Part shown: piece by piece, positions 7,520 through 52,873 of the stretch
Layout: every line of letters begins with the position of its first letter
How positions within the stretch are numbered: the stretch's first letter is position 1
Assembly (NCBI RefSeq): GCF_006345805.1
Contig: NW_021833779.1
Location: forward strand, 1 to 55,849
Length of the DNA: 55,849 nt
Reading direction: 5' to 3'
DNA from: Octopus sinensis
Taxonomy: Eukaryota
Made by a program: the position numbers and the translations under genes
The notes under the pieces: model-generated
The model's input: the letters and a program-made list of their open reading frames with translations, nothing else
What the model was told of the DNA's origin: nothing
The model's database searches: none

Positions 7520-7605
7520 CAATGACATGCCAGTATAGTCAAAAAGCACATCATTCCGAATTTTTTTCGAGTGATGCAAAAAGTATTATTCCGAAATTTT
7601 TTTGG
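7520..7605 (-). promoter_or_regulatory. H3 promoter (subtype 1) upstream of LINE A2
   Basis: Closely matches 12576-12665 upstream of the real H3 gene. Contains two CATTCCG/TATTCCG motifs. Confidence 0.85.
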
Positions 7606-7668: not shown

Positions 7669-7817
7669 GTTATAATACAGGTAAGAAAACCTGATAACAA
7701 TCCTGTTTCCCCCTCACTATTGCTTGGGACATGTTCCTGGAGGAGCCATCTAGTCTCCAGAGGATTGTGTGTTCTCAAGGTCTTGAGACGTCCAATACAC
7801 TTGAGAAAGCTCAACGA
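7669..7817 (-). pseudogene. CRE-like (RLE-type) LINE C-terminal remnant, cut by A3
   Basis: Copy of 12729-12870. Confidence 0.65.
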
Positions 7818-12556: not shown

Positions 12557-12589
12557 ATTTTATTATTTCAGAAAACAATGACAATGCCA

Positions 12590-12665
12590 GTATAGTAAAA
12601 AAAGACATCATTCCGAAATTTTTTCGAGTGATGCAAAAAAGTATTATTCCGAAAATTTTTTGGTT
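12590..12665 (-). promoter_or_regulatory. H3 promoter motif pair
   Basis: aaaagacatcattccgaaattttt and aaaaaagtattattccgaaaattttt. Confidence 0.7.
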
Positions 12666-13443: not shown

Positions 13444-13508
13444 TTATTTTGTATTTGTGTACTTAGTAACTGCCTTTGCACCTTCTGTAATAGCATGTTT
13501 TGCCAATT
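13444..13508 (-). pseudogene. H2B: H2B 3' fragment ([20 protein letters not shown]), 5' part deleted at the junction with LINE B1
   Basis: Matches 29905-29969. Short aatt microhomology with the B 3'UTR. Confidence 0.9.
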
Positions 13509-15932: not shown

Positions 15933-15952
15933 CAGAAGGAATTTGTATGTCC

Positions 15953-18444: not shown

Positions 18445-18464
18445 CAGAAGGAATTTGTATGTCC

Positions 18465-20947
18465 GAACGAACGAACGAAGAATTTTATTGTAAGAAAGAA
18501 GAGCGAGACAGAAAATTAGTGCGGAAAGTAATTTTGACGAGACGATTGCTTTGGGCATTCGAGCTCTTCCATGGTTCGTCCGCTTTGTCTGTCTATGAGC
18601 AGGGACACCTGCTATTCTCCACGATCGATGAATAGGTCAGTTACTTTAGAGCGTTTCCGAAAAGTTCGGATAGAAGCCTCGATGGCCTGCCGTAGCTCTG
18701 GAGACTTGCTCTCCGCCCAGCTTGGGACAGGCTCCCATGGATTTAGCATATAGGCTAGTTTTAGAGCGTATCTCCGTATTTTTTCGCATTTTCGCAGAAT
18801 TTTTTCATATTGTTTCGAGTAGAACCAAGCTTCCATACCATACAGTAGGCTGGGCAAGATTGTTGCATGGTATACAAATAGGAAGGTATTTGGATTCAAG
18901 TGCATGTCTTAGGAGTCGGAGAGCGGCGATGGCTTTCCCTTTTCTCCGTTTGAAATGCAATGGTATCTCGAGTTTGCGTCGATTGTGAGCCCCAGGTAAC
19001 GTATGCTCTCAGGGCGAGCAATTTCCACCAGAGAGCCGGGTTTGCGATCTTGCGACTTTCTTGGGTTAATTTGGAGATATGCAGATTTGTCCATGGCCAG
19101 CGAGAGTCGCTTACCAATGCACCAATTCTTTATCTCCTCAATGTAGCCGGCAAGTCGTTTCTCCGAGGCATTGGTGTCCATCGAGGTGTCCAGAACGAGA
19201 ACATCGTCCGCGTAGAGGAGTAGGGATGTCCTGGGATCGGAGGGTGTGGGGAAACTGCTCATTACCAAATTGAAAAAGATTGGGCTGAGACAGGACCCCT
19301 GCGGAATCCCCCTTCGGAGCGAAATATATCTTGAGAAGAAGCCCGACTCAGAGATAAAAGAGTAGCGATTTGAGAGGAAGCAGCGCATCCAGAGGAAGAC
19401 TTCCGCTGTTGGCTCACAGAGTTCGATCCTTTCCAGGAGGTCTCTGTGCCAGACGCTGTCAAAAGCCTTTGAGATGTCCAGACATACAAGAGATAAAGTT
19501 TCTTTAAACTCCGTTGCTCGAGAGATGGTGGACTGTACCGTAATGAAACAGTCACCGCAGCTACGTCCAGAGCGAAAACCCCATTGCGCGGGAGCAGCAC
19601 TTTCTTCTCTTCGGCGTGGAAGTCGAGGCGCTTGGCCATAATTTTCTCCATCAGCCTTGAGATAGTTGGGATTAGGCTTATGGGACGGTAGCTGCTAGCG
19701 AGATTCACCGGTTTCGCAGGCTTTTTGATCATCCGGACCTCTGAGATTTTCCATTTTTTCGGCACATGGCCCCATTTGAGACTTGCCGTAAACAGATCCG
19801 CGAGGAACACATGTAGGTCTTCGGGTGCTTCCTTAAACAAATCGCATCGGTATTTTGTCATGGCCCGGTGCGTTGCCTTTTGACGAACGGATGGCCCAGT
19901 CACCTCTGCAATGGTGATCGGGTGATGGTCCGGCGACAGTGGGCGCGGCAGTGGCTCCGACTCCCGGTTTTGCGACGTTTCCGGATTGGCTCCTGGATAG
20001 TGGCCAGGTGTTCTGCAAAATATGTTTGGCATCTCTTGTGGCGAGGCGGGCATACCAGACTGGTTTGCACAACTCGGGGGTGAGGATTTTCCTTCGAGGT
20101 TAGCCACTTTGTGGAAACAGTCCCAGAAATTTGGGTTTCTGTAGTCCAGGTTTTGACAAGCCTTCTGCCATTTCCTGGCTGCTTCCAGCTTTGTCGCGAC
20201 GTGGATCTTATAACCAATTCCGAGATCATGTTCCTAAGTCTTCCCCTGTCAGCTGGGTCCACACAGCGTTTGAGTTTATTTCTCAGCCGCTTCCTTTCGT
20301 TGAGGATGATCTTCACTTTCACGCTCAGAGTGGTCCTCCGTGCGCGGTCTGCACTTGACAATTTCCGTACGACGTTAGATACTGAAGCATGAATTTGCTT
20401 AGCTATCGCTTGCGGAGTCGATGTCGAGGGCTGAGTTATACAACAGGGCGACCGTTGTCGTGCAGGAATGCACTTATGAGCTCCTGTAGTGTGGCCAGTT
20501 GATCTTTGAGAGATTGTAGTGAGAGGAAATGTGTTCTTGTCTAACAATGCTAGTGTGAATTTTGATCTCCATTGGTAGGTGGTCACTTCCGATATCGTCA
20601 AGGACTGTAGGCTTTTCCATAAGGTTAGCGACAGAGTGAGAACAGATGCACAGGCACAGGTTGTCCCCGCCAAAGGGCGAGTGGTGGTTCGGGTCTTCGG
20701 ATGTCCTGACGAAAACACCAAGCTTGTCAGTGACCTTCTTCAGTGTTCGACCATCTTGGTTGGTAACCGACATCCAAACGCCGTGTGCTTCGAGTTTAAG
20801 TCTCCGATAAGAAGGCAATGAGCTGTGCTTGAGAAGAATTCGTCAATCAATCTGATGCAGGGGGGGAGATATTTGCAATATATTCACCGACCTTTATCCG
20901 AAGGAATCAGTTTCACCTCAAGAGAGAGGAATTCGCACACCGTGCTC
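18465..20947 (-). mobile_element. LINE B copy B3, same truncation point as B1 and B2
   Basis: Flanked by atttgtatgtcc at 18453-18464 and 20956-20967. The repeat period is about 2.51 kb. Confidence 0.92.
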
Positions 20948-21114
20948 CAGAAGGAATTTGTATGTCCGAACGAACACGAAGAAGAATTTTATTGTAAGAA
21001 AGAAGAGCGAGACAGAAAATTAGTGCGGAAAGTAATTTTGACGAGACGATTGCTTGGGCATTCGAGCTCTTCCATGGTTCGTCCGCTTTGTCTGTCTATG
21101 AGCAGGGACACCTG

Positions 21115-23712
21115 CTATTCTCCACGATCGATGAATAGGTCAGTTACTTTAGAGCGTTTCCGAAAAGTTCGGATAGAAGCCTCGATGGCCTGCCGTAGCT
21201 CTGGAGACTTGCTCTCCGCCCAGCTTGGGACAGGCTCCCATGGATTTAGCATATAGGCTAGTTTTAGAGCGTATCTCCGTATTTTTTCGCATTTTCGCAG
21301 AATTTTCTCATATTGTTTCGAGTAGAACCAAGCTTCCATACCATACAGTAGGCTGGGCAAGATTGTTGCATGGTATACAAATAGGAAGGTATTTGGATTC
21401 AAGTGCATGCTTCTTAGGAGTCGGAGAGCGGCGATGGCTTTCCCTTTTCTCCGTTTGAAATGCAAATGGTATCTCGAGTTTGCGTCGATTGTGAGCCCCA
21501 GGTAACGTATGCTCTCAGGGCGAGCAATTTCCACCAGAGGCCGGGTTTGCGATCTTGCGACTTTCTTGGGGTAATTTGGAGATATGCAGATTTGTCCATG
21601 GCCAGCGAGAGTCGCTTACCAATGCACCAATTCTTATCTCCTCAATGTAGCCGGCAAGTCGTTTCTCCGAGGCATTGGTGTCCATCGAGGTGTCCAGAAC
21701 GAGAACATCGTCCGCGTAGAGGAGTAGGGATGTCCTGGGATCGGAGGGTGTGGGGAAACTGCTCATTACCAAATTGAAAAAGATTGGGCTGAGACAGGAC
21801 CCTGCGGAATCCCCCTTCGGAGCGAAATATCTTGAGAAGAAGCCCGACTCAGAGATAAAAGAGTAGCGATTTGAGAGGAAGCAGCGCATCCAGAGGAAGA
21901 CTTCCGCTGTTGGCTCACAGAGTTCGATCCTTTCCAGGAGGTCTCTGTGCCAGACGCTGTCAAAAGCCTTTGAGATGTCCAGACATACAAGAGATAAAGT
22001 TTCTTTAAACTCCGTTGCTCTCGAGATGGTGGACTGTACCGTAATGAAACAGTCACCGCAGCTACGTCCAGAGCGAAAACCCCATTGCTGCGGGAGCAGC
22101 ACTTTCTTCTCTTCGGCGTGGAAGTCGAGGCGCTTGGCCATAATTTTCTCCATCAGCCTTGAGATAGTTGGGATTAGGCTTATGGGACGGTAGCTGCTAG
22201 CGAGATTCACCGGTTTCGCAGGCTTTTTGATCATCCGGACCTCTGAGATTTTCCATTTTTCCGGCACATGGCCCCATTTGAGACTTGCCGTAAACAGATC
22301 CGCGAGGAACACATGTAGGTCTTCGGGTGCTTCCTTAAACAATCGCATCGGTATTTTGTCATGGCCCGGTGCGTTGCCTTTTGACGAACGGATGGCCCAG
22401 GTCACCTCTGCAATGGTGATCGGGTGATGGTCCGCGACAGTGGGCGCGGCAGTGGCTCCGACTCCCGGTTTTGCGACGTTTCCGGATTGGCCTCCTGGAT
22501 AGTGGCCAGGTGTTCTGCAAATATGTTTGGCATCTCTTGTGGCGAGGCGGGCATACCAGACTGGTTGCACAACCTCGGGGGTGAGGATTTTCCTTCGAGG
22601 TTAGCCACTTTGTGGAAACAGTCCCAGAAATTTGGTTTCTGTAGTCCAGGTTTTGACAAGCCTTCTGCCATTTCCTGGCTGCTTCCAGCTTTGTCGCGAC
22701 GTGGATCTTATAACCAATTCCGAGATCATGTTCCTAAGTCTTCCCCTGTCAGCTGGGTCCACACAGCGTTTGAGTTTATTTCTCAGCCGCTTCCTTTCGT
22801 TGAGGATGATCTTCACTTTCACGCTCAGAGTGGTCCTCCGTGCGCGGTCTGCACTTGACAATTCTCCGTACGACGTTAGATACTGAAGCATGAATTTGCT
22901 TAGCTTATCGCTTGCGGAGTCGATGTCGAGGGCTGAGTTATACCCAACAGGGCGACCGTTGTCGTGCAGGAATGCACTTATGGAGCTCCTGTAGTGTGGC
23001 CAGTTGATCTTTGAGAGATTGTAGTGAGAGGAAATGTGTTCTTGTCTAACAATGCTAGTGTGAATTTTGATCTCCATTGGTAGGTGGTCACTTCCGATAT
23101 CGTCAAGGACTGTAGGCTTTCCATAAGGTTAGCGACAGAGTGAGAACAGATGCACAGGCACAGGTTGTCCCCGCCAAAGGGGAGTGAGTGGTGGTTCGGG
23201 TCTTCGGATGTCCTGACGAAAACACCAAGCTTGTCAGTGACCTTCTTCAGTGTTCGACCATCTTGGTTGGTTAACCGACATCCAAACGCCGTGTGCTTCG
23301 AGTTTAAGTCTCCGATAAGAAGGCAATGAGCTGTGCTTGAGAAGAATTCGTCAATCAATCTGATGCAGGGGGGGAGATATTTGCAATATATTCCACCGAC
23401 CTTTATCCAAAAGGAATCAGTTTTCATCTCAAGAGAGAGGAATTCGCACACCGTGCTCTCGATGATGGTGAGGTTACGGATTTGGAGGTTTTCGGCGTAG
23501 AAGATGCTCGAGCCAGTCCCTGGCGTAGAGCAGCTTCCCCATTTTAGATCCTCTGACCGGTAGCCCGGAAGTTCGTACGAGTGGTTTTCTTTGAGCTTAG
23601 ACTCGTTGACGACAATAATGTCTGGATGGCCGCTGTTTACCATCTCAACGAAGTCCTGGTGCCGTCTCTTGATAGATCGGGCATTCACAGCTATGATTTT
23701 GACTGGGGCTAT
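21115..23712 (-). CDS. LINE B ORF2 (APE + RT), fragmented by indels; no AUG at the expected start
   Basis: IIAVNARS, VNESK, IGDLNSKH, GSDHLP, LDISKAFDSV, YADD. Confidence 0.88.
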
Positions 23713-24990
23713 GTTGCTGGCGTGCTCCCCTCTAATAGGAGCCGTTGCAGCACCTCAGGTTCCACACCAAGTTTGGTTAGAGCTCCCACACAACGATGAA
23801 AGAATTCCATAAGGGAGTCTCTGTTGTGCAGGTCTTCGTCCGAGAGGGCACCTCTTTGCGATGAGATATTGTCTGGAGGGGTGTTTGTCTTCTTGCGAGC
23901 AGCAGCCGTGCGGCCAGCTCTGGTACTGGAACAAGTGTCAGCCGTCGGCTTCGGGTCGAGTTTAAAATCAAAGTCGGAGTCCGCCGATGTCTGAATGCAG
24001 ACATCAGTCTTGATCGGATTCACAACTGGCCTCTTTGTCCAGATCGACTCTGTGCGTTCGGCTTTCACCCAGCGAGCTGGGTTGCTGGCCGGCGGATTTC
24101 TCACAGCCCGTAAGGCTGCAGACGCGGCTTTGGCGAATGGGCATCCACCGTAACATGCCCAGTGTCCAGGACTGTTGCAGTTTATGCAGGTCTTGACAGC
24201 AGGGTCATTTGGTCTGGGGTCTGAGTTCGGACACACTATTGTGTCGGTGTTCGCCACAGACCAAGCAACGAACTTTTTCGGTGCACTTATGGGACGTGTG
24301 TCCAAATTGGTGACACCGAAAGCATCTGACTGCCGGGGGCTTGTGCCATTCACATCGGATATGGCTGAAGCCCGCAGTTATTCCAAAGCGGATGAGGGTG
24401 TTGGCCTCTGCTCTGGAATCCAGGGTGAGTCTGCCGACAGGCATGTCTGTTCCATTGCGAGAGAATCTTTCGAACTTGAAGTCCGATTCTAGACTTTCTC
24501 TCAAGTGGAGGTTAAGATCCTCTGTCGAGATCCAATGAGGGATTCCTTTAAGGATCAAGACTGAGGCCTTCTCAGCTATTGAGGCAAGTTTATGGCCGCC
24601 TTCGCCAAACATATTCGATTGAGTCAGCTCTGCTTTGAACGCAGCAGCATCCTCGGGCGATCTGAATTTTAGAATGAAGGTGCCGGACTTCTGCAAAGTT
24701 ATCCGAGCTTGGAGAGGCAGTTAGCGACTTGGATAGGAGGTTAAACCTCTTGATCTTTCCAAGCGTCGGGTTTTCAATACTCAAGGAATATGTGAGGGTC
24801 TCATGGGGTGGGTCTCACTCTGTTTTTGGGGCCCAGTAGGCTTCGGCAGTTCTGTGGGATCCTCAGCTTTGATTGGTTCACAAAAGGGCTGTGGCTTTGC
24901 CGCTGTTCGTCTTTGAGCTTTGGCGCAAGCTTTGATTGATGAGAGATTTTGATTATTCTTGACCATTTTTTCTTTCTTTTCCTTGACCAT
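23709..24990 (-). CDS. LINE B ORF1 (gag-like, CCHC knuckles), fragmented by indels
   Basis: Collinear with the intact ORF at 46452-47753. CFRCHQFGHTSHKC and CINCNSPGHWACYGGC knuckles. Confidence 0.87.
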
Positions 24991-25050
24991 GATATTCAAT
25001 CCGATATTCAATCCGATATTCAATCCGATATTCAATCCGATATTCAATCC
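24991..25050. repeat. 5 x 12-bp perfect tandem repeat (gatattcaatcc) directly 5' of the B4 ORF1 ATG
   Basis: Five exact units counted in the sequence. Confidence 0.97.
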
Positions 25051-25076
25051 TGTATAATTTATCCACCAAATCCGTA
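25051..25076 (-). other. 26-nt exact copy of the H4 3' end (YGFGG-stop + 8 nt of UTR) inside the B4 TSD
   Basis: tgtataatttatccaccaaatccgta = 479-504. Confidence 0.93.
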
Positions 25077-25106
25077 TTTGTATGTCCTTGGAGAAAAAAC
25101 ATTATA
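25076..25106 (-). promoter_or_regulatory. Residual H2B 5' leader/TATA-like segment, the insertion site of B4 and A4
   Basis: atttgtatgtccttggagaaaaaacattata versus atttgtatgttccggaggggaaaaacattata at 30276-30307, upstream of H2B. Confidence 0.8.
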
Positions 25107-28100
25107 AGTTAAGGGAGTTAAAAACTAACTAAGTAGACCTTCGGCATCGCTGCCTTTTCAGTCTCCATCTCACACACGCCTCCCTACACACAACCACAGG
25201 TTAAGACTTACCGCCTTTACCTGCCATCCAGAAATAATCTTCTCTAGGACCTCAGAGAGGCCTTTGAGAGATGATTCCTGGGCGTCGGAGAGCTCAGTCC
25301 GGAATCCTAAGCCATAGGCTAGCCTTATGGCTCGTCTTCTTACTTTTTTAAGCACGTCAACATGCTTATCCCTGTCCTCATAGAGGTACCAAGCGTGGAC
25401 GCCATAGGTCAAGACGGGTAACACCATGGCGTTAAACACGCGGAACCAGGCACCTCTGCTCAAGCGGAAAGCACGCAACGCACCTAATCGCTGCATTGCA
25501 CGCATTTTCGTACGTGCAATGTGATCATCAAACTTACCGGACGGCTTAAAGAGCACGCCCAAATAAGTCATCCGATCAACTGCAGCGATTGCTGACCCGC
25601 TCAGCAATAACCTAGGAACAAAATTAGTGTAACCCCTCGTCCTTTTACAGACTTTAAGGACACTGCACTTGTCCGCGCACATTCTCAGACCCTACTCCCA
25701 CACCAGTTTGCAAGTCCATCCACAGCAACCTGAAGCCTACGACACGCACACTCCGGTTTCATGAGTGATCCCAGAGGATAATGTCGTCTGCATAGATTAC
25801 CATTTCAGTACGAGCATTGACTGGCATAGGCGCAGTGGCCATAAACACATTGAATAGTAGTGTCGGACTGAGCACAGAGCCCTGAGGGACCCCGCGAAGG
25901 ACTGTTGCGACTTTAGAAAAGACCCCCTGATGCCGCACGACCTGCCTGCGAGATTCAAGAAACCCCGACAGCCAGCGCCTTAGACACGGAGAAACCCCAC
26001 ACGTGGCAAGGGAGCTCCGGAGGCCGTCGTGCCACACCGAGTCAAAGGCCTTTTCAATGTCGAGACTAACTAAAATACCGCATTCCCTTTTCTGGAGGGC
26101 GTTCTTCATACCAGACGACACCTTGTGAAGGCAGTCCCCGCATGAGCGGCCCTCCCTGAAGCCCCATTGGAACTCAGGGAGGGCGTCTGCAACCATCAGC
26201 TCCTCCAGGAGCCTTTGGTGCATAATTCTTTCTAGGATTTTAGATATTGCGGGGAGCAAGGAAATGGGCCTATATCCCCCGGGGACATCATGTGGCTTCC
26301 CGGGCTTTCCGATAAGGATTACCTCAGCCACTTTCCACCTGGAGGGAATCATCCCAAGTCGCAAGCTCCCGTTAAATAAAACCTTTAGTGCAGTGATTAA
26401 CCGCGGCGGGGCCTTCTTAAAGATGGCCATCGGGATCCGATCCAAACCCGCCGCGGTGTTTCTTACTTCGGGAGATTGCTGCCAGAATCTCCGCTTCAGT
26501 AATTTCGCCTGCATCGTCCTTGATATGCCCAGCTGGCAGCGCTTGTCCCACGACAATATCTGCTGGACAGTATCAAAGGACGATGTCTCTACGAACTGAC
26601 TTCCGTCAGTTCCCGAGATGCCATTGAGATGGGCTGAAAGTATTTCAACCACCTCAACCGGGTCCGAAGCGAGGGTTCCATCAGAGCGTTTAAGGCGCAC
26701 TGACTTAGCCCCCTTCTCCCCGACAGGCTCTTCAACTGCTTCCAGAAGTCCGGAAAGCGAGGGTCCACCCTTCGGCATGCCCTCTCCCACCGCGAACTTT
26801 CGAGTTCGCGGATTTCTCTTCGGATCTCCCTCTGAAGCCGGCTAATCCAGCCACGAAACCAAACACGGTTCTCCTCGTAAACGCATTTGTCCCGTAGTCT
26901 GGATAGCCGGCGCTTGAACCTAATTTTATTTAAGATCCGGTGAGGGAGCGTGGAATGTGCCTGACCCTGCACTGAGTTTTGTTTGAAATTATCTCGCATG
27001 TAATCAGTCAGGGCAGCATTGATTCCATTATCAAGCGCCTCCAACTCACGTATGTTGGCGCAGGTATTCCCCACCAGAAGTGAGGGCAACCTGCTGGCCA
27101 TGAAACTCTCCAGGTTAGCCCAGGAACCCACCCGGAGGTCAAAGTATCCTGGGACCCTTTGAGGAACTGGCTCACGGAGTTCGTGCAATAGAGGCAGATG
27201 GTCGCTCCCAATATCGGACAATAAAATAGTTTTACTAACCCAATTTAGAAGACCGGGACTGACCAGAGCAAGCCCTAGCCAGTCACGTCCTCCCCTCGCG
27301 TCGACGTGGTTTGGCTCGCTCGAAGTCCGGATTTCCAGCCCGAGGTCTTCAACCAGCGTCTTCAGAGCCAACCATGCGAGTTGGTTACCCTGAAACCAAG
27401 ATCTTGATGCTTGGCATTCAGGTCCCCAACAACCATGGCCTTCGGATGCTTTTCAAAGAACTCCCGTACGTGCCAGGAGCACGCCGTAAAGTTCTTCGAG
27501 TACATCCACCTAGGTAAAATGTTAACTCGCCTATGCGAATTCTCACTTGGAGGAATTCACACAAGCTACATGAACATATACCTGGACTCTGCAAGGCAAG
27601 GTAGGCTTGTAGTAGAGAGGCTAGTTCCTGTGCCACATATTGACCCCTGTTTCCAGGGTATGTGACGACAGTTGTAGCCATCAACTACGTACGGACCCCC
27701 TTTACCTTCGTTTCGTTGACCACCAGAATGTCCGCACTCGTGGTGGCCAACATCCTCTGAACGGCGTCCCTTTTTCCTTCCAAGGAACGCGCGTTCACCG
27801 ATATGATGTTGAGCATCATATCGGTTCTTCGCCAAGGATCTTCTTGGCCTCGGCAACGTTGCAGTGTAGCATTTCCTCTACACTGCAATTCATCTCCCTA
27901 CAAAATTTTAATAGGGAAACGCATAATTGCACCGCAGGACTAATACTGTCCTGCGGTACACGCTCGCCAGGGGCTGAGTGCAATGGCATCTCCACGTATG
28001 GAGGACGCCTTTTCAGCCCCAGGTTGTGCCGGACGGCGCCGACGTTAGCCGCCTCAGAAGGCATTGCCGGCTTAGGCAACCAAGCGGACTCGGAAGCTTT

Positions 28101-29640
28101 CACCTGCTTTGCCAACTTTGTCGGCGAAGGCTGCACCGACCCACACGTAGCATGGCTCACAGGTTCCACTGTCTTCGCCACCCAAACGGATTTGGAAGGT
28201 TTGGCCAGTATCGCCTGCTTGCCAGGTTTTGGCGCAGGGCGCGCGACGCGACGCGGGCGACTTACTGTTGGGATTACATCCCCACCTACCTTTCGGGTTG
28301 CCTCCTTGAACTTGGGGCAACCTCTGAAGTTGGCAGTGTGTCCCAACTTACCACAGTTGACACACTGCCTCTCCTTGGATGGTGAGGGGCACGTCTTGCG
28401 ACCATGCTCCCCACCGCAAATAAGGCACTTCGCCTTATCCGGGCACTTTGTGGAGATGTGCCCGAACCCCTGACACCGAAAGCATTGGGTGGCTTTCGGG
28501 CGGGGCCAGGCAGCTCTCATCCTAATGTAGCCGATCCTGGTACCAAGAAGTACCAGGCGCTCAGCTTCTGCAGGAGATCCCAGTGTAATCTCCACCACTT
28601 CAAGAGGGCGATTACCCTGCTTGAAGCGTGCAATGGCAGAGGCACTGGGGTACTCCTGCTGCAGATGACCTAGGAGGTCATTATCCTCGAAGTCCCGAGG
28701 AACCCCGAGGAGGAGGACACTTACCTTACTTACCTTACGTTCGATCCTGACAAGGCGATGCATGCCAGGACCGAACGGATTTGACTTCTTCAGCTCCCTT
28801 TGAAGTTGGAGAAGTCATCCTCCTTCTCCCACCCAAGCAGGAATTGGGTGGGCTCCCTCTTCAGGACTCTATACAGCTTTGAAGGCTGGATAGAGTCTAA
28901 CGTACCTAAGATCTTTATGACCGAGGCCTTCCCACTTGTAGGGAGGACCTCAAGTCGTGCCACAGCACCGAAGGTAATTCTGCCCCCGGCGCCAGTGGTC
29001 TTCTTTGGGTGTGCATCCGCCTGATCGGACACACACCCAGTACCTAAAACATTAGGGGGGTTGGACGGCCAGCCGCACGTTTGGGTTTCCCCACCGTGTA
29101 CCAACCGTCCTCAAGGGCAACCTTATTCCTGCCGTACCCACCGGGACGGCCTCAGGAGACGACACCTGTTGGCATTAATTGACTTACCTAGGCTGGGTTT
29201 GGTACCACTAGACAAACGCAAACACGTGGCGAACCAGCATGCTGTGCGGTTGTGGTGGATACCAAACGATCAGAAACCAGTTGCACCTGCAGCTCCCCCG
29301 ACACCAGCCATAGGGGGAGCAGAGGAAGAAGTGTCTCCAGTGAGTGCTGAACCCACCTGGGAGGGTCCAGGCTTCGACTTTCCTTCCTGCTTTCGCCTAG
29401 AAAATTAAAGACACCACTAGAATAGCCGGAAGCGCGTGGCGGTGAACCACGGCTCCGGCAATCATCGTAGTGGCACATGAACCGTCTTGTCCTTCTGGGA
29501 GAGCGAGGCGGGGACACCTCCACTTCTGCATAGTCTTCTAGTGCAGACAGCTTGCGAGCAGATTTTGCAGACAACTGTTCCTTGGTACTTTTGCACCAGT
29601 AGATTTTCGAGCCGTTTGTTTTGTTCTAGCCATATTTATT
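25107..29640 (-). mobile_element. LINE A copy A4, full-length, H3-head ATG at 29633
   Basis: Collinear with A2. Only about 7 nt of H3 leader is present, followed by H2B 3'-flank sequence. Confidence 0.93.
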
Positions 29641-29904
29641 GTTTTGCGAGAGAACGATCAGATCCCGGTCAAAAGAATAGCTTGCAAGTTGTCGCGCATG
29701 ATTGTAACCGAGATCCTTGTTTCAGCCAAGAAGATTCGCGTGCATACATGTTTTCCGAGCTATAAGGAGCCCGACATCTTTTAAGAACTGGATGTTGAGA
29801 AGGCTGCGGAGGTCTCGAATGGCAAAGGAACAATTACTAGTTAGATTTCGATTGTGTTGCAATAGTTATTTAGAGAACAAATGAATAAAAATATTTTTAA
29901 AGTG

Positions 29905-40695: not shown

Positions 40696-40885
40696 ATTTT
40701 TTTTATTTCAGACAGGACAGTTTCAGGAATGGAATGGAAAGTTTTATTGTAAGTAAAACAGAGACTAAGTAAAAAGGTTGGACGAGGTTAAACGAGACGA
40801 CTGCGAAGACAGTCGAGCTCTGCCGAGATTCGTCCTAAGGGAATATATGAGCCGGGTTTTTGAAGAGTCACTCTCTGATTGAATT

Positions 40886-43503
40886 TCAGACGCGATCCAC
40901 GAAAAGATCGGTCACCTGAGACCGCCGACGAAAAGTTCGGATGGAATCAAGGATGACTTTCTCGATTAGTGGAGATTTCTCCTCTGCCCAGTTGGGTAGC
41001 GGGGCGCGTAGATCCAATCTGTACGCTAGCTTTAACGCATAGCGACGGATCTTCTCACATTTTTTCAATATTTTTCCGAATTGGTTTGAATAGTGCCACG
41101 CCTCCTCCATCCCATACAAGAGACTTGGGAGAATCGTCGCGCGCGAAGACAAACAGAAAAGTGTCGGGGGCCAAATGCATACCTCAGGAAGCGAAGGCCG
41201 CAACGGCCTTTTTCCTTTTTTGGGTGATGTGCAGTAAGTACTCCGAGTTAGAGTCTACCGTCAAGCCCATATAGCGAATGTGGCTCGGGCGGGGAAGTCT
41301 TCTGAGAATCTCAGGCTCTTGCCTCGATTTGCGCCGTGAGTTAATTTCAATTTCAAGGTACGCCGACTTGTCCATAGCAATGGATAGTTGTTTACACCCG
41401 ACACCAGGTCTCTATCATTCCGATGTAGCTGGAAAGACGGTGCTCCGAGAGGCGGGGCTTTTTGAAATATCCATAATGAGGACGTCATCAGCGTACAAGA
41501 GGAAAGTTGTCCGCGGATTGGGGAAGGAGGGGAAGCTGCTCATCACAAGGTTGAACAGCAGCGGGCTGAGACTGGATCCCTGCGGACACCCCTTCGGAGA
41601 TGTATATCTCTGGAGTGGAAGCCCGACTGGGACACAAAGGAGATACGGTTAGAAAGAAAGCAATTCAGCCAGAGAAATGCCTCTCTCGTTGGCTCACAAC
41701 TGCGAACCCTGTCCAATAGGTCTGGGTGGTACACGCTGTCGAATGCTTTAGAGATGTCAAGGCAGATGCAAGATAAAGTTTCGTTGAACTCCATTGCTTC
41801 AAAGCCATCGATTGGAGAATCAGAAAACAATCGGCGCAGCTGCGCCCCGAGCGGAAGCCCCACTGCTGGGGCAGAAGCACGCATTTCTGCTCAGCGAAGG
41901 AGTCGAAGCGTTTGGTCATAATTTTTTCCATAAGCCTCGAGATCGTTGGTATTAGACTGATGGGTCGATAGCTGCTGGCAAGGTTAGCTGTTTTTGCAGG
42001 TTTCTTGATCATCCGTCGTTTTCGGCGACTTTCCAGGCACTTGGAACGTGGCTCCAGCGAAGACTAGCCGAGAAGAGGCGTGCCAAAATCAGACAGTTCC
42101 GGAGGGCCTTCTTTGAACATTTTCATTGGTAGCATGTCATGCCCCGGTGCGTTGTCCCTCGCCGAGAGGATGGCCCAGGTCACCTCAGTCAGCGCGGTGA
42201 TTGGGTGATGATCAACAGATAGGGAGTCTGCTTGGTCTATAGGACTGGCATGTGAGTTTCCCCAGCGATCCTCATGGTCCGGCAGAGGACGGTCCAGGTG
42301 ATCAGCAAATATGTTGGGGATTTCCTCCACCGACGCAGGCATTCCAGCTGAGTTCGATAATTCTGGTGCCGGAGAGTTCACGAGATGATTAGAGAGTCTG
42401 TTGTAGGCTATCCAGAAGTTTGGGTTCCTGTGATTAAGACCAGAGCAGCCTTCTTCCACATCCTCTCAAGATCTTTCTTTCTTGTGAGTTCAATTTTGTG
42501 GTTGAGCAGAGAGATTTCCGACCTTAGGGTACCTTGGTCCGTTGGGTCGGCACAGCGTTTGAGCTTGTTTCGCAGGCGCTTCTTTTCGCCCAGAAGTTGG
42601 AGAAGTTTGGGTTTGGATGATGTGTAATGCCCTTGCTAGTTGGGCGCACCCTCCTAGCGTGGGCTTCAAGTAGAGTCGCATGAAGTCCGTCAATTCGGCG
42701 CCCGAGTTGTCGATGTCCGAGGTAGATTGATAGCTGCCTGGGCGTACGTTGTTGCGAAAGAACAAGTTCAGAGCATAACGGTAGTGCGCCCAGTTGATGT
42801 TCGAAAGGGTGTATCGTGGTGGGCAACGGATTTGGGTGTCTACCGAGACGTGGACACAGACCTGCATTGGCAGGTGGTCGCTCCCAATATCGTCGAGTAC
42901 TATTGGTTCTCCCATAAGATTCGCGACTGATTGAGAGCTCAGTGCTACGCAAAGGTTGTCCCAGCCGAATGGGGAGCGGTGGTTCCGGGCTTTCGAGGTG
43001 CGGACACAGACGTCTAGCCTACCTGCCGCTCTTTCAAGTAACCGGCCCGCCCGATTGGTCACGCGACAACCAAATGCCGTGTGTTTGGAGTTTAGATCAC
43101 CGATGAGGAGGCAATGATTTGAGCTGACAAAGAAGTCTTCGATAAGACCGATGCATGGAGCAAGGTTTTTGCAATATATTCCGCCCACTTTTAACCAAAA
43201 GCGCTGGGTTTTAATCTCTAGCGAGATAAATTCGCATAGGTTCCGTTCGATAGTCTTGAGGTTGCGTGTCTTGAGATTTTGCAGGTAGTAGATAGTCGTC
43301 CCAGTCCCAGGCGTAGAGTTATTTCTCCATTTCAGGTCAAGGGAGCAGTATCCTGGCAATTCGAAGCATTGACCTTCTTTCAGCTTAGACTCGTTGACGA
43401 CGATCAAGTCAGGATGGCCGCTGTTTACCATCTCAACGAAGTCGAGGTGCCGTCTCTTGACAGATCGGGCATTCACAGCGATGATTTTTAGTGGCGTGGT
43501 CAT
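40886..43503 (-). CDS. LINE C ORF2 (APE + RT), many frameshifts
   Basis: MTTPLKIIAVNARS, IGDLNSKH, GSDHLP, YRPISLIP, LDISKAFDSV. Confidence 0.85.
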
Positions 43504-44874
43504 TTTGCTGGCGAGCTCCTCTCTGATAGGAGCTCTTCTAGCTTCTTGGGTTTGACTCCCAGTTTTCAGCTGCGTCGACACAGCGTTGGTAAAATTCCAA
43601 CAGAGCATCCTTGTTGTGAGAGTCTACCCTTCGCCTGCGTTTTGGCCTGCTGAGTACCGTTCCTTATTGGGCTGACGGGCCTCGGTTTCACAGCCTCGCG
43701 ACAGGGGCCTGCATGCTCTGCGCACCAACCTCAACGACTTGCGTCGTCTGGGTATGGGCGTCCGCCACACACGGGTTATTAGCGGCCGTACTTTCCAGAT
43801 AGGCGTGACCGGCTTAGCTTTTACCATTACCATGCGGGTTGGGTTAGGAGACCGAGGCATTGCTTCTGCGCGGGCGGCCCATTTAGCTGCTGTTGCAGCT
43901 TTGGCCGTCGGGCATCCACCATACGAAGCGAGGTGGCCGGGGCGGTCACAATTGATACAATGCCGACCGCAGGGCTCCACTAGACTTTGTTTGCTGCCTG
44001 GGCATTCCCTTCGGTCGTGGTCCTTGCCGCAGTATAAGACCGGGCTTTTTCTTGACAGTTACGGGACAGGTGTCCGAATCTCTGACAATGGAAACATCGG
44101 ACGACAGGAGGTCTGAACCATTCACAGGTGATAAGGCAGAAACCAGCTGTGATTCCGGTGCGGATCAAAGAAGTAGCTTCAGCTCGTGAGTCAAGCGTCA
44201 GCTTAGCAACTGGGATGTTGAGACCATCTCGCGTGAATCGCTCGAGAACGAACACCGAACTGAGGGTTTCCTTCAGGTGCAGCTCTAGGTCCCGATTGGA
44301 GATCCATCGCGGAATCCCCTTTAGGACTAGTGCTGACTTTTGCGGAGTAACTAAGGCAAGTTTATGGCCGCTTCGCCAAACGGGTTCAATCTTGCAAGCT
44401 CAGCCGAGAATGCATCAGCATCTCCGGGGCTCCTGAACTCAAGAGTGAAGGAGCCTGAGCGTTGTAATGTAATCCGTGCTTTGGAGGCAGTTGGCGACTT
44501 GGATAGGAGGTAAACCTCTTGATCTTTCCAAGTGCCGGGTTATTAATGCTCAGAGTGAATGTGAGGCCTGAGCTGTTAAGGTCAGACCTCGGGGGTTCGG
44601 TGGATTCTTCAACTTTGGAGGGCTCTCCTTGAACCATCTGGACCGTCGGAGCACCTCCACTTCGACATAGATTTCTTATTGCAGACAATTGTTCGGTGGA
44701 ATCTTCTTCAACTTTGATGGAAACATGTTGAACCGTCTGATCCGTCAGAACACTCCCACTTCGACATAGGTTTCTAATTGTAGACAATTGTTTCCTTGGA
44801 ACTTTTGTTCTTTTTTGTCCTTCAGTGTTTGCTTTTGCGTTTTCTTTTGAGTTTTTCTTAGGTGCCATTGACAT
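43500..44874 (-). CDS. LINE C ORF1 with an H2B/H3/H4 mosaic N-terminus (frameshifted downstream)
   Basis: MSMAPKK...[24 protein letters not shown]...QLSAIRNLCRSGG runs in frame into LSINNPALGKIKRF, which is shared with B ORF1. CCHC knuckles follow. Confidence 0.83.
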
Positions 44875-44935
44875 TGACAAAAATTCCTGATTATCAAAAA
44901 AAAAAAATTTATTTCAGATTTTTTTCAGATTTCAG

Positions 44936-46303: not shown

Positions 46304-47759
46304 AATGAATGAATGAAGTTTATTGTAATTAACAGAGAAAGAGAAAGTGACAGGAATTAAGGACGGTGATAGGACGAGACTGATGCAAAGGCAACTGAAC
46401 TCTTCTGAGCTTGCGTCCAATTCATCTGTCGTGAGCCAGAGTTAATGGTGGCTATGTTGCTGAATTGCTCCCTTCTAGCAGGAGCTCTTGCAGCATATCC
46501 ATATCCACTCCAAGTAGGGTCAGGGCTCCTACACAACAGCGGAAGCATTCCAGTTGGGAATCTCTGTTGTGTAGGTCCTGATCCGAGTGGGGACCTCTTT
46601 GTGACAAAGCTTTGTCACTGTGGGTTTTTCTCCTCTTACGAGGGACAGCCGAGCGGACCACTTCTGAGTTATGGCACTCATTAGTGGTTGTCTTCGAGTT
46701 TGTGAGTGTGCTGGGGGCCGGCGACGTCTGAGTAGAGACATCGACTTTGGACGGACTTCGGGGAGCCGCTTTTGTCCAGACTGATTTTATCGGTTCGGCT
46801 TTCACCCAGCGTACTGGGCTTTTTGTCTGTGGGCTCTTCGCAGCCCTTGAGGCTGCTGTTGCTGCTTTGGCAGATGGACATCCACCGTAGCACGCCAAGT
46901 GCCCAGTGTTCTTGCAATTAATGCAAGTTTTTGCAGCTGGGACATTCGGTTTTGGCTTGGAACTCGGGCAGTTTTGGTGCCTGTGTTCTTTACCGCAGAG
47001 GAGACAACGGAGTTTTTCGGAGCATCTGTAGGACGTATGTCCAAACTGATTGCAACGGAAGCATCTCGTTGCTGAGGGCTTGTGCCATTCGCAGCGGATA
47101 TGGCTGAAGCCCGCAGTTATTCCAAAGCGGATGAGGGTGTTGGCCTCGGCTCTGGAATCCAGCGTGAGTCTGCCGATAGGCATGTCGGTTCCATTGCGAG
47201 AGAATCTTTCGAACTTGAAGTCCGATTCTAGACTTTCTCTCAAGTGGAGGTTAAGATCCTCTGTCGAGATCCAATGAGGGATTCCTTTAAGGACCAAGAC
47301 TGAGGCCTTCTCAGCTATTGAGGCAAGTTTATGGCCGCCTTCGCCAAACATATTCGATTGAGTCAACTCTGCTTTGAACGCAGCAGCATCCTCTGGCGAA
47401 CTGAATTTTAGAATGAAGGTGCCGGACTTCTGTAAGGTTATCCGGGCTTTCGAAGCAGTTGGAGACTTGGATAGGAGGTTAAACCTCTTAATCTTTCCAA
47501 GTGCCGAGTTTTCGATACTCAGAGAATATGTGAGGTTCGAGCTGTTACCCTCAGTTGTCGTCTGATGCAATTGGGTCTCACTGTGTTTTTGAGCCACAGT
47601 AGGGTTCGGAGGGGTCGGATGTTCGGTGGGATATTCAGGTTCGCAAAAGGGCTGTGGCTTGGCCGCTGTTCGTCTTTGAACTTTGGAGCAAGCTTTGATT
47701 GATGCGAGATTTTGTTTATTCTTGACCATTTTTTCTTTATTTTCCTTTACCATGCAACT
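46304..47759 (-). mobile_element. Non-autonomous ORF1-only LINE (B') with a 7-bp TSD and a (TTCA)n tail
   Basis: TSD gaaagtg at 46297-46303 and 47760-47766. The empty site is visible at about 36596 and 55012. ORF1 is followed directly by a B/C-like 3'UTR, AATAAA and the tail. Confidence 0.92.
46452..47753 (-). CDS. Intact B' ORF1, 433 aa from the ATG at 47753, three CCHC knuckles
   Basis: Uninterrupted ORF. The longer start in the ORF track lies outside the TSD, in the promoter. Confidence 0.9.
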   Translation of the reverse strand: MVKENKEKMVKNKQNLASIKACSKVQRRTAAKPQPFCEPEYPTEHPTPPNPTVAQKHSETQLHQTTTEGNSSNLTYSLSIENSALGKIKRFNLLSKSPTASKARITLQKSGTFILKFSSPEDAAAFKAELTQSNMFGEGGHKLASIAEKASVLVLKGIPHWISTEDLNLHLRESLESDFKFERFSRNGTDMPIGRLTLDSRAEANTLIRFGITAGFSHIRCEWHKPSATRCFRCNQFGHTSYRCSEKLRCLLCGKEHRHQNCPSSKPKPNVPAAKTCINCKNTGHLACYGGCPSAKAATAASRAAKSPQTKSPVRWVKAEPIKSVWTKAAPRSPSKVDVSTQTSPAPSTLTNSKTTTNECHNSEVVRSAVPRKRRKTHSDKALSQRGPHSDQDLHNRDSQLECFRCCVGALTLLGVDMDMLQELLLEGSNSAT

Positions 47760-48667
47760 GAAAGTGGAGTGAAAAAATCTCATATAATAAAAAAGTATCA
47801 TTCCGAAATTTTGTTGAGTAATTCAAAAAAAGTATAATTCCAAAATTTTTGAAGTTGACGGGATGACCCTTTTCCCATTTGAGAAAGGAAAAGGCCTCGT
47901 ATGGCATGCAAGCTGCTGGGATACTTTCTCTGCTTCACATCTAACCTCGTGTGCTCTGGAGGCTAAATCAGCTGCTAAAAAGCCTGAAGATTTAAAGCTT
48001 TCCAAATATTCTGCCCTTTTGGAATAAAATATCAAGAGGAATTCTGCAAGGGGACTCTTTGTCTCCACAGCTATTTGTTTTGGTGATGGATACTTTGAGT
48101 AGGATGTATTAATGTTTTAGTTATTATAACACATTCCGTGGGAACATAAACAAAGTTATAATCCCACACGTGTCACAAGCGAAACAATCTTCTGGACCAT
48201 CCTTGTCCATGCCCTTCTGTTGCGGGCGAGATCCCGTAAAGATTCTAGGTCGTCCCAGTTTTTGAAACTTTTGCCATGAAGTTTGAGATCCCTTTCAAGA
48301 ACTGTCGGAAGAGTGGATCTAGGTCTTCCACGATATTTGTCTCCATGTTCAAGAAATAATCGTCCATTGCCCGATTGGCCGGAGCTCTGGGGTCCACTCG
48401 CAAATAATTCTCTAAATAAACATAATTATAAACAGATGCAAAAAAATAAAATATTAGAAAAAAATAAATTTTTCAACGATATAACTCTAATTTACTGTAT
48501 AAATATACTTTTTGTTATTTCAACAAGATTTCTTACCAATTAAAAAAGCAATCGTAGTATTTCACCGTCGTTTGGTAGCTAGTTAGTATATTTATGAAAT
48601 TGCTAATTTTTATCTGGTTAATTTGTAAGGAATATCAATGTATTTTATTAAAAAAATTATGTATAAT

Positions 48668-48976
48668 TTATCCACCAAATCCGTAAATTGTCCTACCTTG
48701 ACGTTTCAAGGCATTAACAACGTCCATTGCGATAACAGTTTTTCTTTTGGCATGTTCAGTATAGGAAATACAATCACGAACAGTTTGCTCAATAAAAATC
48801 TTAAGGACAGAACGTGTCTCCTCGTAAATTTTTCCAGAAATTCTTCGAACACCCCCTCTTCGACATAGTCTTCTTATTGCTGGCTTAGTAATTCCTTGTA
48901 TATTGTCAATTAATATCTTTCGAAATCGTTTTGCACCACTCTTTCCTCCTTTGCCACCTTTACCACGTCCAGACAT
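48668..48976 (-). CDS. H4: Histone H4
   Basis: Intact 102-aa ORF. Confidence 0.98.
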
Positions 48977-49131
48977 TGAAAAATTCTCTAAATGAACACT
49001 ATTTTCAACCTATGCACAAAAAGTATCATTGCCAAATTTTTTCAAAAGGACTATTCCGAAAAAAATTTTCAACTAAATTTCGGAATGCCATTTTTTTTAT
49101 TATGTAAATAAAAAATAGTTAGCAGAGTATA

Positions 49132-49491
49132 ATGTCTTCAAGAGGAAAAGGAGGAAAAGTACGGTCAAAGGCTAAAAGCAAATCCGTTCGGGCCGGGTTA
49201 CAGTTTCCAGTTGGACGCATTCACCGGTGTCTCCGTCATGAAACCCGAATGCGAGTAGGAATTCCTGCCGCAGTATATATGTGCGCAGTATTGGAATATG
49301 CTGTGGCTGAAATGCTTGAACTTGCTGGAAATACAGCAGTAAAATGTGGAAAAAGAAGAATTAAACCACGTCACATTGTCGTTGCAATTGGAAATGACGA
49401 CGAATTAAAAGAATTAACTCAGAAAGCTATTATTTCATCTGGTGGATTTATGATTCGCAAAACTGCAGAAACTCCTAAACCAACTTCCTAA
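49132..49491 (+). CDS. H2A: Histone H2A
   Basis: Intact 119-aa ORF. Confidence 0.97.
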
Positions 49492-49742
49492 CTTTAAATT
49501 AATTATTTGAATAATGCACTGTTATTTTGTAATATTGTTTTCGAAATACAATAGATCAACCAGTTAAGTTTTTTTAACGAATTTCAAAAAAATTTCAAAC
49601 ACAATCAACGAATAAACATTTAGAAGTAATTATAGATAAAATATCGCAATACTGTGTTATTTTATCATTGGCGAAATATTTTTTTAGTCCAATATAATTT
49701 ATTTACTTAGGCTAAATTATCCCAAAAAATAGTAAATATATA

Positions 49743-51226
49743 CAGTGAACAAAAATAAAAACTGAAAAAGCATTTTCTCATGAATTTACTATGAAACAAT
49801 ATTTAAAAAATAACTTCTATTGATTTAAAAAAATTAAATAAAGTTTTGCTGTATTTTTTAGTTTGTCTAAAAAATATTATATTTATACAGTTTTCCATTC
49901 ATTCATAATTCAGAACCCAAAAAATGAACAAATTTATTTAATATCTATTATGTCCTCCATTAGCTCTAATTACATCTAGTATTCGGCCTGGCATGCTAAT
50001 AATAAGACTTTTTGCGTATTCTATTTTGAGTTAATTCCAAATGGATGATATTTTTGCAAATAAATGTTCCTTTTTCAAAAATTCTCTTCCTTTGATTTTT
50101 TCTTTAATAAAGGCCCAAACATTCTCTATAGGGTTTAAATCTGGGCTTTGTGTTGGCCATAGTAGTAATTCGATATTATTTACTTGAAAAAAGCTCTTTG
50201 CTATTGCCGAAGTATGTTTCAGATCATTGTCTTGTTGGAAACTAGGATCTTTATGTTCGATTTTGTTCAGAAATGAGATCATATTATTCGTTAATATGTT
50301 AACATACAAAGCTCCACCAATCTTCTCTTTTATCAAAACCAAATTAATGAATCCAATATTGATTATGGCATGATAGTTCATGATAGTTCCTTTACCGAAT
50401 TTTATTGTTTTTGTAAGATTGCTTGTTAAATATTTTTCCTTGCGATTTCTCCATACTAAAGTTCTTACATCACTATTTTACATATTAAATTTACTTTCAT
50501 CACTTAAAATAACTCGCTCCCGAAATATTTTGAGAGCATATTGCATGTTTGGCATAGCTTTAATCATTGAAGTTTAGGGTTTTTGGTAAGAAGTGGTCTT
50601 TTCGTGGGCGGATATGCATTCAGACCAATTTTTTCGTGGTATTTCTTATTGTTTGAGCTGTTACTGATTTCCCTTTTTTTCTGTAAATGTTTTAGTAAAT
50701 TAAAAACAGTTGAAATTGACATCCACTTTTCAAGCCTCTTTAATTTAAAATATTTTTGACGATTGAGCAACGAATGGTCAACCAGACCCAACTTTTTTGT
50801 CCGTCAAGCACTTATTTGAATAGCTTTTGATAATTTGCAATATCGTGCCAAGCATACTTTTTCGTGATATCTTGTATTTCTCTGTATGTTTTTCCAGATT
50901 TATACATGCCAATTATTCTGCCTTTTTCTTCAAATGTTCAATGATTGGCTATGTAGAGAGGTTACAATTGATTGAATTTGAACGAATTTTAAAAAATATA
51001 ACCTTTTTTTGATATATATATAAGTAATTTAAATTTGTTCAGTATTTTTTTGGTTTTAAATTTTCGATATCATAAAAAAGGGCATAAATATATATTTATT
51101 AAAAAAAACTAAAAAAATGTAAAATACTTTAATCTATGTTAAAAATAAATTTGAGACATATTTGCAATATTGTCCAATTGTAAATTTATAAGAAAGAGCA
51201 TGTTCAGTTTTTATTTTTGTTCACTA
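49743..51226 (-). mobile_element. Tc1/mariner-like DNA transposon (about 1.48 kb), transposase decayed
   Basis: TA-flanked imperfect terminal repeats of about 65 bp (CAGTGAACAAAAATAAAAACTGAA). DDE motifs FQQDN and SPDLNPIENVW at 50031-50381. Confidence 0.9.
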
Positions 51227-51455
51227 TAGCTTGTTCATGGTTATAGGTTTTTGTTTGTTTTCCTGCTATATATTAATTATCCAAGAAATCCGTATTAAAC
51301 AATTTTTAATTATATATTTTCTAAAATACACAACTAGTATCCTCTTTTTATCTAAACGAGGTGCAACATTACATTTTCTACAAACTTCAACAAAAAATTT
51401 AAAAATTGTCTCAGAATTATCCAAACAATAAATCATTTTTTATTTAAAATACAAA

Positions 51456-51866
51456 TTATGTTTTTTCACCTCGAATTCTTCTCGATAAATGCATATCGTT
51501 TGGCATTATAGTTACTCTTTTTCCGTGAATTGCGCACAAATTACTATCTTCAAAAATTCCAACTAGGTAACTCTCTGCCGCTTCTTGGAGAGCGACAATC
51601 GCTGACGATTGAAAACGCAAATCAGTTTTGATAAACTGAGCGGTTTCTCTCACGAGTCTCTGGAATGGAAGTTTTCGTAGTAACAAATCAGTGCTCTTTT
51701 GATATCGTCTAATTTCTCGCATTGCAACAACTCCAGGTCGAAATCGATGAGGTTTCTTTACCCCTCCAAATTGTGAAACAGACTTGCGAGCAGATTTTGC
51801 AGACAATTGTTTCCTTGGAACTTTTGCTCCAGTAGATTTTCGAGCAGTTTGTTTAGTTCTAGCCAT
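51456..51866 (-). CDS. H3: Histone H3 (intact, 136 aa)
   Basis: [12 protein letters not shown]...KKPHRFRPG...LPFQRLVRE...[10 protein letters not shown]. Confidence 0.98.
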
Positions 51867-52130
51867 ATTTTTTTTATTTCAGACAGGACAGTTTCAGGCT
51901 AGTTATTTTTGTTTTATATAGTTAAACAACATTATTCCGAATTTTTTCGAGAAAAAGTATCATTCCGAAAATTTTTTGCTCATCATTTTTAAAATTAAAA
52001 AATTAAATATTTTTAAAATAATATTTTATCAGCACCATCAAATAATTGTAACTATTGCTTAAATTGATGAATTTTTCGAGATTACAGACTAAATTACTAG
52101 TGAACTAATTAAAGAAAAAACAGAGAACGA

Positions 52131-52315
52131 TCAGATCCCGGTCAAAAGAATAGCTTGCGTGTTGCCGCGCATGATTGTACCAGAGATCCTCTGTCTTAGC
52201 CAAGAAGATTCGCTTGCATCCATGTTTCTCCGAGCGATAAGGAGGCAGACGTGTTTTAAGAACTTGGATGTTTGCGGGACAAAGGCTGCGGAGATCTCGA
52301 ATGCCAAAGGGACAA
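52131..52315 (-). pseudogene. CRE-like remnant 2
   Basis: VPLAFE...WLRQRISGTIMRGN. Confidence 0.65.
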
Positions 52316-52387
52316 TTACTAGTTGCATTTGGATTGTTGAAATAGTTATTTAAAGAACAAATAAATAAAACAATTATTTTTAAAGTG

Positions 52388-52753
52388 TTATTTTGTATTC
52401 GTGTACTTAGTAACTGCCTTTGCACCCTCTGTAATAGCATGTTTTGCCAATTCACCGGGAAGAATCAGACGAACTGCAGTCTGTATTTCACGTGAGGTAA
52501 TGGTAGCCTTCGAATTCTGATAGACTAGATTTGATGCCTCGGTTTTTATTTTGTCATAAACATCAAATGTGAAACTGTCCATAGCCATCATAGCCTTCTT
52601 TGACATCCCAAGTTGATTATGTACTGTCTTTAAAATTTTCATAAGATATATGGAAAAAGTTTTCCTTTTCTTTTTTTTCTTTGTAGCAACAGAAACATTT
52701 TTGCTTTTTATAGGAGCTCTTTTTTGTCCCTTTGTGCTAACTTTAGGTGCCAT
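52388..52753 (-). CDS. H2B: Histone H2B (intact, 121 aa from MAPKV)
   Basis: [42 protein letters not shown]. The true ATG is at 52753. Confidence 0.97.
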
Positions 52754-52778
52754 TATCCACAAAATTTGCAAGTTTTGA

Positions 52779-52869
52779 AGTGAAAAAATCTCATATAATA
52801 AAAAAGTATCATTCCGAAATTTTGTTGAGTAATTCAAAAAAAGTATAATTCCAAAATTTTTGAAGTTGA
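52779..52869 (-). promoter_or_regulatory. H2B promoter (TATA-like element + two motif copies)
   Basis: catataataaaaaagtatcattccgaaattt...aaaaaagtataattccaaaattttt. Confidence 0.72.
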
Positions 52870-52873
52870 GCTA

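Follow-up and report, generated by a model that had tools for sequence, protein, structure and literature searches.

APE-type LINEs joined at a fixed position in histone promoters, and a family that probably runs from them

The histone cluster and its likely source

The window analysed here, the entire 55,849-nt contig NW_021833779.1 of the 2.72-Gb Octopus sinensis assembly (GCF_006345805.1), contains a rearranged H4/H2A/H3/H2B gene cluster and several LINEs coding for a CCHC-type ORF1 protein, an AP endonuclease (APE) and a reverse transcriptase (RT). The native histone unit used as reference, with its promoters, occupies 48668..52870, with H4 (48976-48668), H3 (51866-51456) and H2B (52753-52388) on the minus strand and H2A (49132-49491) on the plus strand; a DDE_3 (Tc1-like) transposase fragment lies between H2A and H3 (50031-50381). 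A type 1 H3 gene with its promoter (12147..12665, minus strand) is the native counterpart of one of the element junctions described below. All four histone promoters share a motif located 50–75 nt above the ATG.

The histone genes are intronless and clustered, and the 3' stem-loop of replication-dependent histone mRNAs is found in none of the eight window genes, compared with four of four canonical H4 loci in the same assembly. The window H3 and H4 genes have AATAAA 14–21 nt past the stop codon, and an Rfam search of the window returned no match. With the stem-loop absent, the coupling of element expression to S phase that a preliminary description of this DNA had proposed keeps only the intronless and clustered state of the genes in its favor.

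The histones encoded in the window are unusually divergent. The same H4 gene is confined to small unplaced contigs, and the H4 of the chromosome-scale contigs is 81% identical to it; the window H2B is 100% identical to a database protein labelled Octopus sinensis over 66% of the length, and an ant-labelled H2B (P0006) is 75% identical and has the same odd residues. Genes on contigs bearing these LINEs are tightly spaced, with 31–38% GC and introns of 24–25 nt, and a dicyemid genome is reported to have a GC content of 36.7% and introns averaging 38 bp (PMC6736024, in part). From gene spacing, GC content, intron length and the distribution of H4, the cluster likely belongs to a small parasite co-assembled with the octopus, and this parasite is probably a dicyemid, as judged from these genome features. 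We rejected the octopus itself as an unlikely origin, given the divergent H4 on unplaced contigs, the compact genes, the short introns and the absent stem-loop. An 18S gene of 1667 nt on an unplaced contig (L171, C1618:6101-7767), where the copies on chromosome-scale contigs are of about 2600 nt, is a candidate marker of the second organism, whose presence within an animal assembly is flagged by these findings. Homopolymer indels are frequent in the assembly, so frameshifts in the element genes may be read errors.

LINEs in the window

Pfam matches include zf-CCHC, endonuclease and RVT_1, and three CCHC knuckles align in families A, B and E. By domain content, the elements are Jockey/I-group APE non-LTR retrotransposons. 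Relatives of ORF1 outside this genome amount to one weak match among 2327 candidates, and the best database matches of a sister element are 27–36% identical, almost all unnamed, and in some cases include an RNase H. Seven elements in the window have 5' ends (A0, A2, A3, A4, B4, B' and C), and two of these, A2 and B', lie below an intact histone promoter.

A2 (2944..7512, minus strand) is a full-length family A LINE coding for ORF1 with CCHC knuckles, APE and RT. The preliminary description had family A using the H3 leader itself, and the borrowed part is larger than that, as the head of A2 (7414..7512, minus strand) consists of a 12-nt leader and H3 codons 1–29, in frame with ORF1. An intact H3 (type 1) promoter (7513..7605, minus strand) lies directly above, and A2 does rebuild the H3 promoter, leader and ATG as had been proposed, with 7501-7605 aligning to 12557-12665 with few differences (94.6% identity across 7413-7817). 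The 3' end of A2 lies in the leader of A0 (1877..2941, minus strand), the 5' part of a further H3-headed copy that is parted from its promoter by A2 and is broken at 1877. The other H3-headed copies are A3 (7817..11830, plus strand), which has an internal deletion, lies antisense in a spacer and has no histone promoter above it, and A4 (25088..29644, minus strand), with its 5' end in an H2B 3' spacer and its 3' end at the cut site of an H2B type 1 gene. Behind their current heads, A (7380-7420) and C (44700-44870) contain older, diverged H3- or H4-like peptides, suggesting repeated rounds of head capture.

Stacks of an element, a leader remnant and another element are common. The suggestion that the newest insertion is the 5'-most fits this geometry, in that a cut set by an upstream promoter puts the newest element first, and A0 is broken and A2 whole; the order of insertion itself is unproven, because an A tail can resemble the TATA stretch. 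This tail variant, seen in 12 of 30 A 3' ends (window 25088-25110; L062-L085), is near-identical to the TATA-to-cut stretch of H2B type 1 and could give a downstream neighbor a TATA at the right spacing or a second landing site, the latter of which would blur the stacking order.

B4 (20968..25075, minus strand) is a full-length family B LINE. The 12-nt target site duplication (TSD) on either side of it (25087-25076 and 20967-20956, minus strand) is leader sequence of H2B type 1. Upstream of it is element A4 and no promoter. Its 5' region consists of 25 nt of H4 sequence and five 12-bp repeats, as described earlier, and the H4 portion is identical to the H4 stop region; we therefore rejected its reading as a borrowed leader. 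Three tandem B copies with identical 5' truncations (13505..20955, minus strand) were likely duplicated after insertion or by assembly.

B' (46304..47759, minus strand) is a LINE of 1.45 kb with ORF1 (47753-46452) as its only gene and a TTCA-repeat tail. It is flanked by a 7-nt TSD (5' copy 47760..47766, 3' copy 46297-46303, minus strand), and two empty copies of its insertion site are present in the window. Above it is an intact H2B (type 2) promoter (47767..47858, minus strand) with two copies of the histone motif, the proximal one starting at 47807, and a TATA at about 47786. The earlier observation that only 6 nt (agttgc; 47759-47754) separate the TSD from the ATG at 47753, below an intact promoter, is confirmed by the coordinates and by the 98.9% identity of the 94 nt above B' to the native H2B promoter (52776-52869). 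Measured from the first base of the promoter motif, the TSD starts 41 nt downstream; measured from the TATA start, the TSD begins 20 nt and the element 27 nt downstream. B' would be transcribed from this H2B promoter, and its leader would be a few bases long.

The preliminary description had counted longer 5' versions elsewhere as evidence against its reading, and for B' they do exist, although with heads of only 19–26 nt. Most of the B 5' loci (30 taken, 28 anchorable) have a longer common head that ends in the same 6 nt as B', and B' is thus truncated by about 15 nt at its 5' end; other B subfamilies have different heads. B' is a truncated, non-autonomous passenger. It belongs to a group of 1.43-kb ORF1-only elements with their own TSDs (B-short), with nine copies in the DNA examined, including copies on contigs C2292, C8744, C8852, C9888, C10743 and C12418. 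TSDs are present in seven of the nine. One copy has a novel in-frame fusion of H2B codons 1–52 to B ORF1, giving about 450 codons (C1083:7999, minus strand; L043); it is joined at a short microhomology below a partial H2B promoter, and is possibly a new head in the making. HeT-A likewise encodes ORF1 only.

The family C element C (40727..44893, minus strand) has its 3' end 32 nt above an H3 ATG and no histone promoter upstream. The start of its ORF1 includes degenerate H2B-, H3- and H4-like peptides. The H4-like leader of about 15 nt ascribed to it in the preliminary description is weakly supported, as the best exact match to a histone leader is 8 nt, a length reached by 37% of AT-rich background windows, and other C copies have differing heads. 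Leader tags in C heads generally do not clearly exceed chance, with one of seven heads reaching 11 nt.

Junction position and element heads

Element tails that end at most 110 nt above a histone ATG mostly share a position. In 32 of 40 junctions, a count that includes duplicates of single events, the element joins 40–45 nt past the start of the shared promoter motif (A, 17/23; B, 10/11; C, 5/6), and these junctions cover all four histone genes and both variants. Three of the eight misses have a base change or indel in the leader. The cut lies about 20 nt past the TATA position: a TATA is found 19–22 nt before the junction in H2B and H3, and a strict TATA is absent from the expected place in the H4 and H2A promoters, where weak look-alikes are present. 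When the junctions are aligned, the position is shared and the sequence is not, with the bases differing among H2A, H2B, H3, H4 and the hot spots described below; sequence-specific targeting was rejected, since there is no common sequence at the cut. The same offset recurs on many contigs, in the four genes and with several different tails. Across the histone-rich DNA examined, an element tail replaces the promoter in 34 of 107 histone genes.

Searches with element 3' ends place many copies at histone leaders. Among the 30 loci taken for each family (of 41 listed matches for A, 40 for B and 36 for C), those at a histone leader number 14 for A, 14 for B (the script gave 15, one of which lies inside H2A) and 9 for C, and 15 of the A 3' ends lie away from leaders. 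TSDs are present in B4 and in some C copies, and the duplications in families B and C are 7–14 nt long and start at the cut position. Three C 3' ends (L239, L250 and L252), in antisense orientation, adjoin the H2B promoter at much the same place below its TATA.

Non-histone hot spots in small dispersed repeats account for ten B and eight C 3' ends. These hot spots (S1, S2 and S3) are within repeats ending in a GACAT terminus (L318-L347; C11576:21315, L165:4076). Roughly half of the 30 S3 loci have a LINE 3' end at the same base; the tails are of five or more kinds, two of them from families outside A, B, C and E. A TATA about 20 nt before the cut was predicted for S3 and then found in empty copies. 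A strict TATA occurs at the expected place in three of seven independent non-histone sites, compared with 5% of background windows, and is thus enriched without being a rule; a general TATA rule for all sites was rejected on this count, and a looser pattern fitting 10 of 10 sites was chosen post hoc and was not used.

The heads of family A were surveyed in about 0.9 Mb of DNA, much of it selected as histone-rich. There are 44 copies with in-frame histone heads, consisting of H3 codons 1–29 (28 copies), H2B 1–25 (six), H4 1–53 (eight) or H4 1–50 (two). Thirty-one heads have neither a promoter nor an element tail above them, and of these 20 have a leader of 9–14 nt, seven have less and four have more; none of these dispersed heads has a TATA or motif of its own in register. 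A start 9–14 nt above the ATG lies 48–52 nt past the motif and 25–30 nt past the TATA position in three different genes, which matches the usual spacing from TATA to transcription start. No conserved 5' sequence was found across the A subfamilies. Their first common body base is about 525, 240 or 205 nt into the element, a distance that makes it difficult to locate an internal promoter used by all. The next methionine of the H4-headed ORF1 is residue 199, inside the conserved region, and the histone ATG is thus the sole start above that region.

A tree of A bodies, made from 36 of the 44 headed copies (the aligned part is missing from the other eight), has both host H3 variants serving as heads in both main clades, and its well-supported branches require at least two to three head changes; heads have accordingly been exchanged with host genes. 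Five of the 44 copies lie under an intact promoter, which matches the head in all five, and a TSD flanks one of the 26 headed copies in which both ends are present, so the majority of A insertions fail to acquire the promoter that they cut. Many A junctions may be products of later recombination or assembly error. In two copies the 3' end is at an H2B site and the 5' end at an H4 or H3 promoter; the native H4-to-H2B stretch is missing in one and there is a 950-nt duplication in the other, as would be expected if the head paired at the time of insertion or if the copy recombined afterwards.

The central proposal of the preliminary description, that promoterless LINEs borrow histone promoters, fares differently in the different families. 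It holds for family A, which likely borrows histone promoters, as argued indirectly by the interchangeable histone heads, the expected mRNA start and the start codon supplied by the head. The case for histone dependence is weaker in family B, whose intact copies sit at non-histone hot spots: three near-full-length B4-type copies, 98–99% identical, are at such sites with clean 11–12 nt duplications, and two of them have several 12-mers. Family B has a shared head of 19–26 nt at many unrelated sites, with two to five tandem 12-mers in the B4 subfamily, and may borrow other promoters or carry a minimal promoter. The C copies have almost no common 5' sequence, which is compatible with promoter borrowing. 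Elements of B and C may borrow the promoter they landed under, and this is much less supported than for A. Sister family E has no histone promoter above any of 19 loci, and its 5' region is 49 nt long and often truncated within; short UTRs thus appear normal in this clade, and a short UTR by itself says little. Family E was rejected as a clean internal-promoter control, as it uses hot spot S3 and its head resembles the S1 sequence.

Explanations and related elements

We consider it probable that insertion of these APE-type LINEs takes place at one set position, about 20 nt past the TATA, and that family A has no promoter of its own and is run from the histone promoter that matches the mRNA start at its head. 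Promoter-bound host proteins, and not sequence, would likely guide insertion. Judged from the TATA spacing, transcription would start 25–30 nt past the TATA start, and a copy with its duplication would begin within a few bases of that start. RNA would come from the few A copies that have a matching promoter above them, the others being mostly silent, and A would regain such a promoter through pairing or recombination between its head and the histone gene of origin. Families B and C would use the same position at histone promoters together with the hot spots in dispersed repeats. A broader version of this reading is more tentative: a LINE clade tethered to the Pol II pre-initiation complex would cut about 9 nt above the start of active TATA-type promoters, with A having given up its promoter, leader and start codon and taking all three from histone genes, renewed by pairing, and the tail variant possibly driving the next element or gene in a stack.

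As an unlikely alternative, A might be transcribed by read-through from any upstream source, with the RT jumping from the head onto abundant histone mRNA and copying to the cap. This would account for the sharp ends, the swaps of H3 variant and the hybrid leaders, with no need of a promoter above the source copy. Heads in which the leader of one type is joined to codons of another make up six of 26 classifiable cases (three plus two, plus ambiguous cases), and many jumps are seen at B and C 5' junctions, including the H4 stop-region piece in B4. However, the element RNA needs a head to give ORF1 its start codon, the head-body junctions are identical within each A subfamily, and in each of the five A copies below an intact promoter that promoter matches the head.

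That an internal promoter overlaps the short head and first codons, as in jockey-type elements of Drosophila, with histone promoters being mere open places for insertion, seems quite unlikely as an account of the whole, and could well apply to B, C or E. The head that B keeps at many unrelated sites agrees with it, as do the tandem 12-mers of the B4 subfamily, which resemble promoter monomers, and a DPE-like 5-mer about 22–29 nt from the 5' end in B and E, a motif with a highly degenerate consensus. In family A, however, the heads stem from three unrelated genes with no common position for a DPE-like motif and place the first shared body base 205–525 nt downstream, and the C copies share almost no 5' sequence.

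It is highly improbable that the junctions arose mainly from repeat recombination or mis-assembly of a repetitive cluster and not from targeted insertion: A duplications are rare, rearrangement of the cluster is extensive, homopolymer errors are common and one A copy under an H3 promoter lies within a duplication of 950 nt that may stem from unequal exchange, but B and C have clean 7–14 nt duplications from the same offset, and this offset is seen again with several tails in all four genes and across many contigs.

The probable reading, fixed-position insertion with promoter borrowing by A, has partial parallels in several known systems. The dictyostelid elements TRE5-A and NLTR-A are position-specific APE non-LTR elements, and TRE5-A ORF1 binds TBP, Brf1 and Bdp1 (PMC5911963, in part). 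Like those described here, they are APE-RT LINEs at a set distance from a promoter in a compact host genome. TRE5-A differs in that it targets Pol III genes, lands 44–54 bp upstream facing the opposite way and is driven by an A-module promoter of its own (PMC5911963, in part), whereas the targets here are Pol II protein-coding genes, the insertions are mostly in sense and host codons start ORF1. Ty3 relies on TBP and Brf1 for its integration at the Pol III start site, and Tf1 prefers Pol II promoters (PMC5911963, PMC5371812, both in part); in contrast to the present elements, these are LTR elements with an integrase and their own LTR promoter, and those portions of the sources describe no capture of host 5' ends. 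A fixed distance from a promoter element independent of the local sequence, as in TRE5-A and Ty3, is thus present here (32 of 40 junctions), and Pol III gene targets are absent, the main targets being histone genes.

R2 is co-transcribed with its host unit (PMC5443660, in part), and with R1, Keno and Utopia several families share one target and stack (PMC4640811, PMC4494074, both in part). As in R2, R1, Keno and Utopia, insertion is into a multicopy host gene, with 34 of 107 histone genes hit, and family A is likely R2-like in its reliance on a host promoter. Those elements are described in the same sources as each recognizing the sequence of a single site in an rRNA or snRNA gene, with a restriction-like endonuclease in R2 and Utopia; in the present case the cut falls at one position in four sequences that are unrelated, and the captured host segment is translated. 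HeT-A, like these elements, forms head-to-tail stacks, and it relies on a promoter upstream of the transcribed copy, as A probably does; in HeT-A that promoter is the 3' end of a neighbor at telomeres (PMC5537684, in part), and here it would be that of a host gene. The elements described here belong to neither the TRE5-A/Ty3 nor the R2 type, having Pol II targets and no target sequence.

No LINEs targeting histone start sites were found among the listed titles and abstract openings of the literature searched, which had subscription journals and Repbase outside its coverage. Possible related cases are Tx1 entries of Repbase specific for histone genes and an LTR element lying in the TATA box of a Drosophila H3 gene. 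The fixed spacing and the second target class, the hot spots, are additions of this analysis.

Known target-specific LINEs either read the sequence of an rRNA or snRNA gene or keep a set distance from Pol III genes. On the broader reading, these elements would include a non-LTR element position-specific for Pol II start sites, a kind we did not find described. A LINE that finds one position in four unrelated Pol II promoters and takes up a host mRNA start together with its start codon would represent a new solution to both targeting and expression. It would also show how the 5' end of a retroelement can be replaced by host sequence.
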